A DNA stretch of 64,000 nt from Lingula anatina (Eukaryota > Animalia > Brachiopoda), in assembly GCA_051362555.1 (NCBI GenBank), contig CM120643.1, positions 1,426,001 through 1,490,000 of the forward strand, in the 5' to 3' direction. Position numbers and translations under genes: made by a program. The notes below the pieces were generated by a model. It had not been told where the DNA came from. It made no database searches and worked only from the letters and a program-made list of their open reading frames with translations. How positions within the stretch are numbered: position 1 is the stretch's first letter; every line of letters starts with the position of its first letter. Shown in pieces: positions 13,501 through 36,241 of this stretch.

Positions 13501-14498
13501 ATTTCGTCAATGCAGCTCACCTCTCAATTTGTTTTTAATAAAATTAAAATTAACCAATTAATAAAAAATAGTTCACAACCAAGATGTAATATTTTGTTAC
13601 TTGGTCCACTCCCAACAGTTTGTCAAAAGTTCATTAAAAGCTGTGCAAAAATTTTCGCATAATGTTGCTAACTGACAGGCGAAAAAAAAAAACGTGTTGT
13701 CCTTGTTGGCGGAAAGAGGTAAAAGAGAATACTGTAAAATGCAATTTTTAAAATTGCGAATCAATATTATTATGTGTCTATAAACGCTGATGTTGAACAT
13801 GATAAACAATTACCTTCATTCATGTCCAGTGGCTCAAGTAAAAGCATGTCGTACTCAGCGCTGGAATATAATGATAAAGAACCCCTTTTTTATTTTTGCA
13901 AATGCTGTTTTAACATACCTTTAGCCTCCAGTGGCACAAGAAGAAGCTTGTCGTAGTCATCGCTGGTATATATTGGTGACAGTGACAGCAGGACGTGCTT
14001 GAGGGCATTAAACTGTGCCTGAAATGCTGAGCCAGTGAGGCCAGGATGAGAGTGCACGTGCTGATTGCGGCTGGACTTCACTCTACCAATGTTTGCCTCT
14101 ATGGAGGTGTCGGAAGCTGATGGCCTTTCCCATTCAGCACGAGGGTCCAGATTGGTGATGTTTCTTAATAAAACAACTGCAAGGGTAATATCCAAATCCT
14201 GCATTGTCACAGTTGTTGAAGGGGAGCCAGAGGGGTACAGGAGTTTCATCTGACTTTGATCCAATCCCTTTCTCTTTTTCAACAACAGCAAGGAATGTTT
14301 GACTTGTTGATTGTCAAGTACGTCAAAAAGTTTGTCAGTTTTATTAGGATCAAACAGTCCTGGATAAGCTGCTTGTAGCTGAGTCCTGAGAACATCTCGA
14401 AGCACGTCAGTTGCATGATCTAAGAGCAGCTGCATGTGGAAATAATTTTCTTCTTCATTTCTTGGGATTTCAGATAGCATTCCCTCTGCCGTTGCCAT
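2755..14498 (-). CDS. Gene A: HEPN(DZIP3-like)-Roc-COR-caspase fusion protein, 15 coding exons, ~1206 aa
   Basis: GT-AG exons join in frame with no stops: 14498-13919, 12933-12712, 12287-12162, 11906-11856, 11376-11137, 10921-10782, 10138-8932, 8746-8669, 8341-8231, 6254-6175, 5964-5791, 5442-5223, 4504-4364, 4141-4032, 2895-2755 (3621 nt). Domain motifs occur in the expected order. Confidence 0.8.
5223..6254 (-). CDS. Gene A exons 10-12: caspase large (p20) subunit
   Basis: VKVRPCSLDRFQ..VYKNYTKLRGRAVIINN, DREGTEVD, VILSHG (catalytic His), LKGKPKMFFISACQS (catalytic Cys). Confidence 0.9.
7966..8145. mobile_element. Small MITE, hAT-like termini, 5-bp TSD
   Basis: TIRs CAGGATCGTAGCCAG / CTGGCTAAGGTCCTG, flanked on both sides by ATGTG. 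Confidence 0.65.
8932..10138 (-). CDS. Gene A exon 7: end of Roc plus COR domain
   Basis: VPVNWIQLE, HRLGNVLHF, VVILNPQWLADLF, YLVPSML and FPHGLFHRLI are COR-type motifs; phase 0 in, phase 1 out. Confidence 0.88.
10782..12933 (-). CDS. Gene A exons 2-6: Roc GTPase domain with insert
   Basis: G1 GPSGAGKT, G2 TPGVEI, G3 IWDFGGQDVYYTTHQTFLS, FWLNSI, G4 IIGTHKD. Confidence 0.9.
11572..11822 (+). mobile_element. tRNA-derived SINE (MetaSINE-like central domain)
   Basis: A box TGGCTCAAATGG, B box GGTTCAATCCC, then CCGGGTCATACCAAAGAC..AAAATGGTACC; A-rich tail. Confidence 0.8.
13250..13430 (+). pseudogene. Tc1-like transposase fragment
   Basis: Translates to WVMTLFSDESRL... and ARIWRRTG, the region around the first catalytic Asp. 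Confidence 0.5.
13919..14498 (-). CDS. Gene A coding exon 1: DZIP3-like HEPN domain
   Basis: ATG shortly after an acceptor; DLDITLAVVLLRN and RVKSSRNQHVH (RxxxxH); phase-1 donor AAAG|gtatg. Confidence 0.85.
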
Positions 14499-17243
14499 GG
14501 TCGTCTACAGATCCAAATAAAAAACAAATGATATGTTCGTTATTCTAGTTGTTTACTCAATTTATACATTAACGGTAAACAATAAAGAAAAAAGATTGAG
14601 CTTTTTATGTACCAAAGACGTCGTTTCAAAATGCACCTTAATATTTTGCTGTCTTATACATCAGGTTATAAAAGGGATCGGGTAAATTGCAAATACTACA
14701 TACCAACTTGCAGTGACAAAACCTGACTTTCAACCATTTAACCACATGAAGTGAACCATAAAATCCAAATTGAAGTAGCAAATATCAGATTTGCCTACCC
14801 TAGCCAATAGTTTCAGTGTAAACAATAACGGGACCAACATCCATTTTGTGACCGCTACCCCCAATATGCAGTCATCACATGGGAACTCCATTCCTAGGAC
14901 TACCATTTCTTTCTCACCGGCTAAATTTTAACCTCTACTAATTATAAGGGACCCACACTTCCTTTACTAGTCATTAACTTTTACTGCACTCATTATGAAG
15001 ATTTCCGGGTGTCCATTTTTTGTACTATGATTTTCTATTTCAACCAGGATGCTAGTTATATTTTGCACAGTCATGTAATCTAGGAACAAAATTAGCGACA
15101 AGATACATACCAGAACGCTTCATTTTTACTGCATACGTGTAATACACAGGTGAATATCATATTATTTAAACTGAATATAGATGATATATGTAACTGCTCT
15201 TTCACTGGCTTGAGGTTATTTTTCTTCTTTTGATTTTGTCCTGTACACTCCATGTATTTCTAGAAGAGGGTCATCATTCACCCATCGCCTTCCACAGTGT
15301 ACCTTCTACGGGATTAATGGTTGGTATCCGCTAGGTATTCACAAATATACTATGATATCTATCTATACTAGAATCAGCCCTGCTAGGGCATACCTGTGGA
15401 TATCTAGGGGAAAGCAATATGTGGCCCTAGTTAAGGGTTACATGATCTTCTTAAACGTTTGGGCAGCGCACGGTGCAAAAAGAATCACGCATGTAATTTA
15501 GTTGATGAACAAATTAATGTTTAGCCGCCCTTGATGAACTTACCGAAAGGTCTCCTTGTAAAATCTGTCGTTACAGCTTCGACATCTAAAACCTCAGGTA
15601 ACTTGGTGTTACAACTTAACTGCGCAATTTATCGAGACAGCTCCGGAAAAAACGCTAAGTTAAAAATAACCACATTGGACGTGAGTCTCGCGATAAAATC
15701 ATACATTGAACTATTTCATTGTATCGCACAAAACACAAAGAAGTTCGTATGCTTTGTGCTAAGCGGAGCGCGTAATACAAACAGTCTTTAAATAAAAAAC
15801 AAATTTGTATAAAGACCCAGTTCGAAGAAAGGGTTGTGTTTCTCTATATTTCCTTTTCTATTCATTTACTGGTAGCTAACATTGAGTACTGGTATATTAA
15901 AATGTTTGTTCTGACTCATTTCCACGCGGGACTTTACAAAACAACAAAAATACATACCAGCAGTGGTGAAATCACAAAGCACACTCTCATGTCATAAAGG
16001 TACAATGTACTCGTACATTTTTTTTGTTTGCTAACTTTCTTACACATGCTGTTTTAATATGAGAGTATTTAGTAAAGACATTCCCATTGTACCTTATAGC
16101 TAGTTAAATAGTTATGGGGCTTTGTTATGTTGTTACTGATACGCCACATTTTTCGGTTGTCGGTGATAGCTGTGGAATTCGCACCGATCCGTAATCTTGT
16201 CTTCTCTTCCGTTCCAATACATATTTTGGTGAATATATCCTTTATCATCTTGCCAACTATGAAAAAAAATATTGTTACAAGCCCAATGTACACCAAATTA
16301 GAAATTTTGGAAAATTCATATTTCATGTGTTTCTTGTAAATTTAAAAGAAATTGTGTTGTGATGTACGCACACATTCTTATCCTCTCTTTGTTCAAAGTG
16401 GCACGTGTCAAGCTTATTGTCACCTTATTTCTGTTACACCCATTTACTCAACACCTTTATTTTATGACAGAATGACAAAATGTTTTAATGTTTTTTATTC
16501 AAATAAAAATGATCCCCGCAAAACTGGCTACCCTAAGTTAATTAAGAAGTTTGCAGTATATTGAATATCGTTTATCCGTCTTTATTTATGAACATTTATC
16601 ATCACATTTCAAAGTAATTAAATGATATTTTAGATTTTCAGCTGTTGTTTTCAAATATTTCAATTTTACGATACGTTTTGCAGGGTCTAGAAAAATTGAA
16701 ATAAGAATTTCAGTCGCACTACAACTCCAAATCACGGAACTATTATATTATTATCTTATTCGAAAAGAGAGCCAGATGGGAAACAACACCAAACTGAGAA
16801 ATGCAATAATAACGATACAATCGTTGAGAGTTCATGTTAATTCACCGTATATATGTTAAAGATGCATACAAAGTCAATTTTTTGTCACAAAAACCAACCA
16901 AATGCCAGCATATAGTTTCAAGTAGTATAACTAAGAGAATTACTAAATGGCATTGTTTAATTTTACCCGAAAATTATGTTTGAACAGATTTTTCTGCTGG
17001 CATTCTATGTATGTCAATGGGGCGGGAAAGTAGGTCACGGAAGTAGGTTAAATTTACAACCATAAATTAAAAGAAAGGAGCAGTCTAAAGGTCTTTTATG
17101 GCTGATCGAGTGATCTATTCAGTTTATCCCTTGGCATGTCAAATTTATTTGAGTCATATAAGAATCTAGTAGAAGTGGTTTACATGTGTTACTCGGAATC
17201 CACACTCCACCGATGCTCGGTTCATATGTACCTTTAAGGAAAA

Positions 17244-35200: not shown

Positions 35201-36241
35201 CAACATGAACTATACTACAAATTTTAAAGCTCTCATATATATTATACTGAATTTTGCATGGGATGTCTTATATTCTTGCAGCAACATTAGATTTGACCCT
35301 TTCCCCACGATTTTATTATAAATTGTAATTTTCTATCAAAAATATGAGTAATCTTGTTTATGCATTATGTAGAGCTTGTCAACTACAACGGTTGAGATGG
35401 TGTCCCTGTTTTCCATACATATGCCTTTACTCCAGCTGTTGGCATAATACACAGAGGCGGTATAACCTTTTTGATCCTGTACTTCAACTTATTGCTCACA
35501 TTTTCAGGTTTTGAAAATAAACACTTAATTCACTGAACCTTTGAGAGGAGTTTACCATTCTGGATGACGAAAAACACGGGTTTGATTCCTTCATATCATT
35601 TATCATTATTTCATCATTTTATTTTAACATTCTGTTTCTCGTCTGTGTATAAACCAATTACCTTTAGCATCCAGAGGCACAATAAGAAGCTTGTCGTAAT
35701 CATCGCTGGTATATATTGGTGACAGTGACAGCAGGACGTGCTTGAGGCCATTAAACTCTCCCTGAAATGCTGTGTCAGTGATGCCAGGACTTCCATGCAT
35801 GTGGTTATTGCGGTAGGTCTTCACTCTACCAATGTTGGCCTCTAAGGAGGTGTCAGAAGCTGGTGGGTTTTCCCATTTAGCACCAGGGTTCAGATTGGTG
35901 ATGTTTCTTAATAAAACAACTGTAAGTGTAATATCTAAGTCCTGTGTTGTCACAGTGGTTGAAGGGGTGCCAGAGGGGTACAGTAGTTTCATTTGACTCG
36001 AGTTCATTACCTTTCTCTTTTTCAAAAGCAGTAAGGTATGTTTGGCTTGTTGATTATTAAGTACGTCAAAAAGTTTGTCAGTTTTACTGGGATCAAACAG
36101 TCCTGGATAAGCTGCTTGTAGCTGAGTCCTGAGAACATCTCGAAGTACGTCAGTTGCACGTTCTAAGAGCAGCCGCATGCGAAAATAATTTTCCTTTTCA
36201 TTTCGTGGGATTTCTGTGGGTATTCCCAGAATTGTTGCCAT
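26647..36241 (-). CDS. Gene B: HEPN(DZIP3-like)-NB-ARC/STAND-TPR NLR-like protein, 2 coding exons, ~1068 aa
   Basis: Exon 36241-35662 (phase-1 donor) joins in frame to acceptor ttttcag|29273; 3207 nt in total. The 6.4-kb intron contains transposons. Confidence 0.72.
29582..30098. mobile_element. MITE (possibly PIF/Harbinger-derived)
   Basis: TIRs GCAAGGCTGATACTTGCACG / CGTGCAAGTGTCAGCCTTGC; interior rich in CGTG/CACGA motifs. Confidence 0.75.
30149..30473 (-). mobile_element. 3' LTR of the Gypsy element
   Basis: On the minus strand, purine tract AGGGGAGAC then TGTACC...CTTACA, directly after the pol stop. Confidence 0.7.
30507..34100 (-). mobile_element. pol: Ty3/Gypsy pol (RT, RNase H, H2C2 finger, integrase); 5'-truncated element
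   Basis: RMCVDYRKLN, MPYGLCNSPATFQ, FLDD, ETDAS, TDNNPL, HQG..CERC, IHSDQG, GQCERFNRT; no gag or 5' LTR seen. Confidence 0.96.
35662..36241 (-). CDS. Gene B coding exon 1: DZIP3-like HEPN domain, paralog of 13919-14498
   Basis: Same 580-nt coding length and donor position; DLDITLTVVLLRN and RVKTYRNNHMH. Confidence 0.85.

Follow-up and report, generated by a model that had tools for sequence, protein, structure and literature searches.

A DZIP3-type HEPN exon at the head of a predicted Roc-COR-caspase gene and a predicted AP-ATPase-TPR gene in Lingula anatina

HEPN domains of the DZIP3/hRUL138-like type (PF18738) occur in fusions to TPR, NACHT ATPase, CARD, DEATH, LRR and ankyrin modules (Anantharaman et al. 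2013, PMC3710099 Table 1), and the searched text of the same paper describes lineage-specific expansions of this family in marine invertebrates. HEPN-headed NACHT loci are described as clustered and copy-variable in the text available from three reports (PMC9646362, PMC8260672, PMC8662601). In bacterial AP-GTPase systems the STAND module is replaced by an AP-GTPase, and the Roc-COR unit is combined with a caspase or other variable effectors (PMC8195603). The shuffling of HEPN domains is already known, and few heads of invertebrate NLR-like proteins are as common as the DZIP3-type HEPN. Its movement between architectures has, however, only been guessed at, and in the literature searched we found no demonstrated activity of such heads. 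Here we describe two neighbouring predicted Lingula anatina genes that carry closely related HEPN exons on unrelated NTPase bodies.

Two HEPN-headed genes on one strand

The window, i.e., the whole 64-kb stretch of DNA that was analyzed, contains two predicted genes on its minus strand (Table 1). Gene A is modelled with 15 exons (3621 nt, 1206 aa) and an open frame ending in a single terminal stop; its HEPN exon is predicted to splice in frame to Roc, COR and then caspase exons. Gene B is modelled with two exons and an open frame of 1068 aa, its HEPN exon probably joining the 2627-nt second exon in frame via the AG at 29273, and the RefSeq paralog models P0001 and P0003 show the same HEPN-to-STAND junction. 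The models agree with the first-pass annotation, which had placed the two HEPN exons ahead of Roc-COR and of NB-ARC plus TPR, respectively. In both genes the splice sites are canonical throughout and the catalytic motifs are intact.

Table 1. Positions of the gene parts, the mobile element and the decayed copies in the window
Feature	Position	Strand	Basis and remarks
Gene A coding exon 1, DZIP3-type HEPN	13919..14498	-	ATG to phase-1 GT donor; RNQHVH; Pfam PF18738 E 5.5e-27; 580 nt
Short tandem copy of HEPN exon 3' end and donor, gene A intron 1	13802..13873	-	blastn 84%/49 nt to A, 78%/73 nt to B
Gene A Roc GTPase exons 12933-12712, 12287-12162, 11906-11856, 11376-11137, 10921-10782	10782..12933	-	Pfam Roc; frame and GT-AG; tblastn to P0002 (11906-11856: splice sites and frame only)
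Gene A COR exon	8932..10138	-	1207 nt; Pfam COR-A E 1.4e-20; 53-55% to five L. anatina Rocos
Gene A linker exons 8746-8669, 8341-8231, 6254-6175	6175..8746	-	Splice sites and frame (8341-8231: weak resemblance to P0002 C-terminus; 8746-8669: no homology support)
Gene A caspase exons 5964-5791, 5442-5223, 4504-4364, 4141-4032, 2895-2755	2755..5964	-	Pfam Peptidase_C14; 65% to P0016 caspase
Gene B coding exon 1, DZIP3-type HEPN	35662..36241	-	Phase-1 donor; RNNHMH; Pfam PF18738 E 7.5e-32; 580 nt; helical model pLDDT 87.8
Gene B exon 2, AP-ATPase/NB-ARC, about 8 42-aa TPRs, conserved tail	26647..29273	-	Pfam NB-ARC and TPR; motifs; AfsR, RPW8-NLR, APAF-1 matches
Gypsy-type pol ORF (RT, RNase H, integrase), gene B intron	30510..34160	- (same strand as B)	Domain and sequence matches
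Decayed copy of caspase exon 5964-5791 and intron	23388..23697	-	Acceptor and donor lost, frameshifted; exon remnant 23697-23539
Decayed copy of gene A last caspase exon and flanks	19901..22160	-	Exon pieces 22077-21985 and 20038-~19980, split by ~1.95-kb insertion
Decayed copy of WD40-like ORF 3' end and downstream DNA (original 1047-2684)	18079..19684	+	86% over 1656 nt; frameshifts

The two HEPN exons had been described as close paralogs of about 80% amino acid identity with the same donor phase. We find 152 of 193 amino acids (79%) and 502 of 579 nucleotides identical, and both donors are phase 1. The domain scores (94.8 bits for A and 110.5 bits for B) lie well above the gathering cut-off of 27, and both sequences carry the Rx4-6H motif with a polar residue after the arginine. 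R144, N145 and H149 are conserved across the HEPN alignment, and RN-x-H is retained in 21/23 Lingula HEPNs. The model of HEPN B is all-helical; the best match in a fold search was AbiF (Z 7.1, rmsd 5.8, 166 aligned), with Swt1 and Csm6 also among the matches, at Z values that lie within the background of helical proteins. The 72-bp copy of the HEPN end in gene A intron 1 was considered as a coding exon and ruled out, being in the wrong phase and out of frame if spliced.

Gene A has Roc directly followed by COR, with the G1 (GPSGAGKT), G3 (WDFGGQ) and G4 (THKD) motifs and Pfam matches to Roc and COR-A, which places it among the Rocos; it is colinear with the Roco P0002 over 920 aa. The HEPN domain abuts Roc and the caspase is C-terminal. 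There is neither an N-terminal LRR or ankyrin repeat sensor nor a C-terminal kinase, and gene A is not a member of LRRK or DAPK. The five caspase exons are all open and encode the His-Cys dyad (SHG and ACQ motifs), an SWR motif, and p20 plus p10 on one chain; the related P0016 matches caspase-8/-7 at 1e-37. The active-site pentapeptide consensus of caspases is QACxG. In its place gene A, P0016 and P0143 have SACQS, whereas P0060 and P0039 have QACQG, so that the activity or the Asp specificity of the gene A caspase may differ from that of QACxG caspases. Other Roco-caspases (P0039, P0060, P0143) have Bcl-2-like or other N-termini and not a HEPN head.

In gene B the ATPase carries the motifs GMAGIGKT, VIIFDNNDE, GRNPLAL and FHPL, and the TPR region is a 126-bp repeat present 8.4 times. 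With an effector, a STAND ATPase (Walker A/B, GxP, MHD-like) and a repeat sensor in this order, the protein has the layout of an NLR-like STAND protein. Domain searches also bear out the earlier remark that the TPR protein lacks a caspase and the Roco an obvious sensor. The intron of gene B measures 6388 nt and contains four AATAAA signals, one of them at 30195; upstream of the STAND exon, at 29334, there is an in-frame ATG. The Gypsy-type pol ORF in this intron was absent from the first-pass annotation, and no LTR pair for it was found within the window.

An exon family shared between STAND-TPR and Roc-COR genes

Relatives of the HEPN exon were surveyed by protein searches among RefSeq models. 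The close homologs all come from Lingula anatina. Among 14 close full-length relatives 11 are STAND-TPR proteins and one is a Roco; the models of four RefSeq Rocos begin inside Roc, short of any N-terminal head. The nearest RefSeq counterpart of gene A is only 58% identical, and with RefSeq lacking close counterparts to the genes in the window, some of the comparisons may be between species. Related heads in L. anatina are found on AP-ATPase-TPR, Roco, CARD-NACHT, RLR helicase and IIGP GTPase bodies, a sister HEPN group with 70-91% mutual identity heading the RLR helicases, one IIGP GTPase and the CARD-NACHT proteins. The mix-and-match character proposed earlier for the cluster thus extends further than had been claimed.

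The trees built from the HEPN and from the NB-ARC domains (the latter without the partial P0008) give the same groups, namely {B,1,3,4,6}, {7,9}, {10,11,12} and 13. Judged by these sequences the HEPN-STAND-TPR combination is an old and dispersed L. anatina family, older than the locus, and gene B is therefore not a new fusion (11 paralogs, congruent trees). Both Roco HEPNs fall within the shallowest group. A single clade of Roco HEPNs is rejected (AU p=0.003), while HEPN A and HEPN B as sisters are not rejected (AU p=0.076); A, B and P0001 have a private motif and a deletion in common.

The HEPN domains of the Roco P0002 and the STAND protein P0003 are 95% identical, and their differences are unevenly distributed, one falling in the first 150 aa and eight in the final 44 residues (p=0.0007 by permutation). 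The Roc-COR parts of gene A and P0002 are 58% identical; the two branch off first within a single Roc-COR clade and have the same junction. Among the eight closest HEPNs neighbouring informative sites are more compatible than expected by chance in most settings (p 0.001-0.12), and more weakly so with two blocks of adjacent sites dropped (p 0.03-0.12). The signal of exchange comes from protein sequences of RefSeq models, and one of the two models P0002 and P0003 could stem from a chimeric assembly. Rooting with distant HEPNs put the root next to the shallow group containing A and B and gave long-branch warnings, and the direction of exchange is therefore taken from the congruence of depths and not from the root.

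Starting from what is directly seen, i.e., the gene models, the intact motifs, the family sizes, the tree incongruence and the mosaic exon in one RefSeq pair, we favour with moderate confidence the explanation that the HEPN exons belong to one Lingula exon family, which has recurrently been exchanged between STAND-TPR and Roc-COR genes, each protein acting alone as a switch-gated RNase. From the sequences the exchange is likely to have occurred through homologous recombination, inside the HEPN exon or immediately behind it. The long-standing partner of the exon would be STAND-TPR and the recipient the Roco side, and gene B would have come in as a member of the STAND family, landing on or next to a partial copy of gene A in decay.

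Activation by dimerisation is established for HEPN RNases, initiator caspases and Roc-COR. In gene B the TPRs would sense a ligand and the AP-ATPase would oligomerise, so that HEPN domains meet and form a composite Rx4H RNase site. In gene A a nucleotide-gated Roc-COR dimer would unite two dimer-activated effectors, the N-terminal RNase and the C-terminal caspase. We put forward more tentatively that the HEPN exon, with its own ATG, acts as a handle for recombination. It would repeatedly plug one RNase warhead, together with its promoter, onto immune switches that are unrelated to each other (AP-ATPase-TPR and Roco, and for the sister exon NACHT, RLR helicase and IIGP GTPase), and would have given rise to a sensor-less Roc-COR dimer switch firing RNase and caspase together.

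Other readings of the locus

The first-pass annotation had instead assumed a local event, in which gene A was duplicated in tandem together with its HEPN exon and a STAND-TPR exon, spliced to the duplicated HEPN, took the place of the Roc-COR exons in the copy. Its observation of caspase-exon remnants downstream of the TPR exon is confirmed. Two such remnants are present, and WD40-like tail, caspase remnants, body and HEPN exon follow in colinear order, which would suit a copy of gene A with an exchanged central part. With 22 relatives as queries, tblastn detected no trace of Roc or COR from 15 to 40 kb, in keeping with replacement, and no trace of STAND or TPR in the surroundings of gene A. 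The overall HEPN A/B nucleotide distance of 0.146 is near the 0.10-0.19 of the duplicated block, and the 13 private substitutions of HEPN A could inflate the distance between A and B, which are tolerated as sisters. However, the dS of the HEPN pair (0.226, about +-0.05 by hand estimate) is higher than the divergence found for duplicated non-coding DNA (0.117+-0.011 over 1.1 kb). The flanks are barely similar: the upstream flanks are just above chance (2/300 shuffles), the intron starts are not (27/300), and none of five further intron comparisons beyond the exon edges was above shuffles. HEPN B is moreover 91% identical to the unlinked STAND protein P0001 and 88% to the Roco P0002, as against 79% to its neighbour. 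Even if such a swap had taken place, it would have produced an architecture that already existed. We regard it as possible but rather unlikely, and less favoured than recurrent exchange.

Alternatively, Rocos may have taken the phase-1 HEPN exon from STAND genes at least two times, by intronic shuffling or retrotransposition and without continuing conversion. Such one-way captures would account for the scattered Roco HEPNs; an exon with its own ATG and phase-1 donor suits both bodies, retrotransposon-driven fusions have been proposed for similar Lingula proteins (PMC8195603 section 11), and the gene B intron holds a Gypsy element. But the similarity of P0002 and P0003 breaks inside the exon near residue 150 and not at the intron, and the early branching of A and P0002 with their common junction fits a single fusion that was later overwritten. 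We therefore consider this reading unlikely.

RNA reads bear on whether the genes are alive. A search of sequencing runs for the TPR exon listed no RNA run that contains it, only nine RNA runs under the same label. Runs X1, X4, X7 and X9 were aligned to 25500-40400 (93%), the resulting table being dominated by a repeat at 35029-35170, and the 29273-35662 joint of gene B is not among the joints listed (15 of 43), at a depth too low to decide. Runs X7, X8, X9 and X2 were aligned to 3500-17200 (95%); none of the gene A introns is among the two joints listed, again at a depth too low to decide. Two reads in X2, below the listing threshold, bridge 4501/5224 with four other letters, a length that fits one caspase intron. 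One or both genes might be dead or dying, the same-strand Gypsy element with its AATAAA at 30195 shortening the gene B transcript or uncoupling its exons, or gene A being silent. The very low depth with no joints listed, the polyadenylation-type signals and the in-frame ATG in the gene B intron, the decay of the duplicate block around gene B and the HEPN A/B dN/dS of 0.55 are compatible with this. Against it stand the fully open models with intact splice sites and motifs and the low-level reads on the TPR exon and the 3' bin of HEPN B in two of four runs, and we consider it improbable.

The proposal that the TPR protein detects and activates the Roco caspase by HEPN-HEPN contact fits the adjacency of the genes on one strand, their complementary domains and the similarity of their HEPNs, HEPN RNases acting as dimers, but is very improbable: gene B carries its own intact HEPN effector motif, the contact would not be pair-specific because at least eight HEPNs of 76-95% identity exist, 0/11 RefSeq STAND paralogs lie on a scaffold equal in length to that of a Roco relative (weak, the assembly being fragmented), and TPR-exon reads occur in X7 and X9, where COR-exon depth is 0-0.32 (shallow, with different thresholds).

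Comparison with known systems

The layout HEPN-Roc-COR-caspase, a HEPN-Roco and the exchange of HEPN exons were not found in the literature searched; Gerdol et al. 2018 on Lingula immunity or the supplements of PMC3710099, PMC8195603, PMC9646362 and PMC11463336 may hold such architectures. Together with its relatives the locus is a dated example, open to testing, of an effector passing between NTPase families that are unrelated. It also allows a natural paired comparison, in which almost identical RNase domains are governed by an oligomer switch driven by ATP in one gene and by a dimer switch driven by GTP in the other, and gene A is a compact test of Roc-COR dimerisation without an attached kinase.

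The DZIP3/hRUL138-like fusions of PMC3710099 belong to the same family as the HEPNs of genes A and B and have the same Rx4H motif. In the searched text of that paper, however, 'ROCO' and 'caspase' had no matches, and exon exchange between families is not described there. According to the available text on pearl oyster, cnidarians and other invertebrates, HEPN-headed NLR-like NACHT proteins resemble gene B in their tripartite effector-STAND-repeat order and N-terminal DZIP3 HEPN, some also having TPRs (PMC9646362, PMC8260672, PMC8662601); they have a NACHT ATPase where gene B has the AP-ATPase/NB-ARC type.

As in gene A, Roc precedes a caspase in the ROC-prodomain caspase of the lophotrochozoan Owenia fusiformis, which the text available from PMC11463336 reports for one annelid protein and not for Lingula. 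Gene A starts with a HEPN domain and has SACQS at its catalytic Cys, whereas the Owenia fusiformis protein P0039 has a Bcl-2 head. No repeat sensor is present in gene A, unlike in bacterial Rocos with their LRR sensors (PMC8195603).

In brachiopods, as in other marine animals, the domains of the TRADD-N constant-plus-variable immune proteins are rapidly shuffled, as seen here (PMC8195603 sections 11 and 15). Retrotransposition is proposed there as the engine, whereas our evidence points to homologous exchange in the common effector exon. Published fast-evolving immune candidates on the same two NTPase platforms resemble genes A and B in their exon shuffling. They shuffle repeat (sensor) exons within each family, however, whereas here a single exon contains the TPRs, and it is the effector exon that appears to move between families.

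The two HEPN-headed genes

The observation that two genes of this locus begin with the same HEPN exon is real. The exon boundaries given by the first-pass annotation proved exact (see the table), and the close paralogy it had noted is borne out by 152 of 193 identical residues and 502 of 579 identical nucleotides, with dN 0.124 and dS 0.226 between the first coding exons of gene A (HEPN A) and gene B (HEPN B). Both exons match Pfam HEPN_DZIP3 and retain RN-x3-H.

Our model of gene A, built from sequence, has 15 exons with AG/GT ends and is open over 1206 aa in the order HEPN, Roc, COR, linker and caspase. 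The last exon was located by means of P0016, a caspase-bearing Roco relative from Lingula anatina, and two small frame-neutral exons were placed on splice signals as their sole basis. The HEPN-Roc junction is the one found in P0002, a HEPN-headed L. anatina Roco. RNA depth over the exons is mostly below 0.5, and one caspase intron is bridged by two reads. Since the caspase reads SACQS where QACxG is expected, its protease activity is not assured.

Gene B consists of the HEPN exon and a single 2627-nt exon, open together over 1068 aa. Its ATPase has the AP-ATPase motifs, with matches to AfsR, an RPW8-NLR and APAF-1, and is followed by a TPR unit of 126 bp repeated 8.4 times. The HEPN-STAND junction is annotated in RefSeq paralogs; the joint 29273-35662 itself is absent among the 15 RNA joints listed (28 further joints being unlisted) from four runs of shallow depth. 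Depth over the TPR exon is about 0.1-1.5 in two of these runs and zero in the other two. The intron of 6388 nt houses a Gypsy pol ORF. An in-frame ATG and an AATAAA within this intron could give rise to a receptor lacking HEPN or to a transcript with HEPN alone.

Features of the locus (positions in the window)
Feature	Position	Strand	Remarks
HEPN A	14498-13919	minus	580-nt coding exon, phase-1 GT donor
HEPN B	36241-35662	minus	580-nt coding exon, phase-1 GT donor
Tandem copy of HEPN exon end and donor	13802-13873		about 72 bp, in gene A intron 1; donor context nearer gene B's than gene A's own
Element directly upstream of HEPN B	36380-36884		about 520 bp, 82% to the next entry; loose-ended RNA reads suggest a dispersed repeat
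Copy of this element	21443-21985		within an insertion splitting the duplicated last caspase exon
In-frame ATG	29332-29334		61 nt before the acceptor of the STAND exon
LTR-like stretch (by eye)	~30150-30475		AATAAA at 30195 on gene B's strand
Intron-free ORF	2-1546	plus	at least 450 aa, no Pfam match; weakly a WD40 propeller (Atlas look-alikes 0.90-0.94, recognition below threshold)
900-bp element, two copies	22410-23301/61303-62187		91%
Mobile or unexplained pieces	38979-40013, 44616-45968, 47850-48452, 58645-59037, 60138-60593, 52627-54003		include LINE-like RT, two DDE transposase fragments, HTH fragment, Ser/Pro-rich 459-aa ORF with internal repeats

HEPN relatives and a probable exchange between families

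A search with HEPN B returned 14 proteins out of 1165 candidates, all from L. anatina: eleven STAND-TPR proteins, one Roc-COR protein (P0002), one with a C-terminal HEPN and one RLR helicase. The genes of the window themselves have no close RefSeq match, so that the window probably stems from a different Lingula population or species or from a region missing in the RefSeq assembly. A profile search (24 matches among 7990 scored, 19 of them from Lingula) brought in further proteins with a HEPN head, on IIGP GTPase, CARD-NACHT and helicase bodies. A sister HEPN group sits on RLR helicases, an IIGP GTPase and CARD-NACHT proteins (P0014, P0024, P0026, P0027 and P0029). P0014 (RLR) and P0024 (IIGP) have about 690 N-terminal residues in common at 69% and then diverge into unrelated NTPases; with equal scaffold lengths and LOC numbers two apart they look like neighbours. 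In the RefSeq protein P0005 the same HEPN exon is C-terminal, behind about 340 other residues, and the end looks as if read into an intron; this is either a mis-join or an internal use of the exon.

With the COR exon we found, among 4902 candidates, five Lingula Rocos at 53-55%, ending in a caspase, a divergent HEPN or an unnamed tail. Our own HMMs detected HEPN in 10 and caspase in 5 of the 150 best representatives, and both together in none. Pfam backed five of the eight HEPN-bearing representatives scanned, P0018 having a precomputed HEPN match and P0051 lying outside the scan. Among the representatives are HEPN-Roc-COR in Mytilus and Roc-COR-HEPN in freshwater mussels. Bcl-2-Roc-COR-caspase is present in Owenia (P0039) with a Bcl-2-like counterpart in Lingula (P0060), and the annelid and the brachiopod protein group in the tree with support 100/99. 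The older model P0021 joins a caspase fragment, Roc-COR and HEPN in reverse order, where NCBI has two genes instead. The C-terminus of the Lingula Roco P0017 has a run of histidines as well as a VQVG stretch resembling a RHIM motif.

The HEPN tree and the NB-ARC tree (which omits P0008) recover the same groups among STAND members, so the HEPN-STAND pairing is old. The two Roco HEPNs fall within the shallowest group, yet apart, and a clade of the two is rejected (AU p=0.003); HEPN A with HEPN B (p=0.076) and these two with the STAND-TPR paralog P0001 (p=0.22) are not rejected. The HEPNs of the Roco P0002 and the STAND protein P0003 differ at 9 of 194 residues, one difference falling within the first 150 residues and eight beyond (permutation p=0.0007). 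This is the pattern that an exchange with a breakpoint within the exon would leave, unless one of the models is an assembly chimera. The Roc-COR parts of gene A and P0002 are only 58% identical. For the eight closest HEPNs, a site-compatibility test under 12 settings yielded p values between 0.001 and 0.12. The distant-outgroup root, which carries a long-branch flag, falls beside the shallow HEPN group and counts against the proposed direction, with STAND-TPR as the older partner and Roco as the recipient.

Local history of the locus

The caspase remnants reported earlier were confirmed as decayed copies of two caspase exons between genes A and B. The duplicate block also includes the tail of the WD40-like ORF beside gene A, in the original order. 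We rank ahead the reading that a STAND-family gene landed on or beside a partial duplicate of gene A. The first-pass annotation had proposed a tandem duplication of gene A followed by a swap of its central module. This pure body swap fits the colinear remnants, and a fast evolution of HEPN A (13 private changes versus 0-9; relative-rate p<0.05 against HEPN B with 6 of 9 outgroups) speaks for it as well. However, divergence in the duplicated non-coding block amounts to 0.117+-0.011 as against the HEPN dS of 0.226, the upstream flanks of the HEPN exons are barely more similar than chance and the intron starts not more so, and the unlinked P0001 shares 91% identity with HEPN B. The body swap is thus less favoured than the landing of a STAND-family gene.

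Possible mechanism and known systems

The RNase active site of HEPN domains is built across a dimer, and STAND receptors oligomerise when a ligand binds. Nucleotides control the dimerisation of Roc-COR modules, and dimerisation also switches on initiator caspases. Gene B would then be a conventional NLR-like receptor whose output is an RNase, and gene A, which has no repeat sensor, may be a dimer switch with two outputs. The two had also been proposed to act as a sensor/executor pair; a dedicated pair is unlikely since gene B already comes with an effector, near-identical HEPNs are numerous and, in a fragmented assembly, none of 11 RefSeq STAND paralogs has its scaffold length in common with a Roco relative.

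In the literature covered, with the 2018 Lingula immunity survey and supplements outside its scope, we found neither a HEPN-Roc-COR-caspase protein nor a HEPN exon exchanged across families. The passages on DZIP3-HEPN fusions in PMC3710099 list TPR, NACHT, CARD, DEATH and LRR and mention neither ROCO nor caspase; the passages covered of PMC9334734 and bioRxiv 10.1101/2025.07.21.665930 have no HEPN-Roco content. HEPN-NACHT expansions are described in sections of PMC9646362, PMC8260672 and PMC8662601. General domain shuffling is known: PMC8195603 (sections 11 and 15) treats shuffled brachiopod architectures and bacterial Roc-COR with variable effectors, and PMC3341825 shuffling in algal ROCO and NB-ARC-TPR proteins. 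Against this background the signal of a cross-family HEPN exchange and the predicted triple HEPN-Roco-caspase layout would, as far as sequences tell, be new. A related case already described is the single ROC-caspase of Owenia, for which the relevant passage of PMC11463336 mentions a ROC prodomain alone and not a Bcl-2 head, whereas P0039 carries one.
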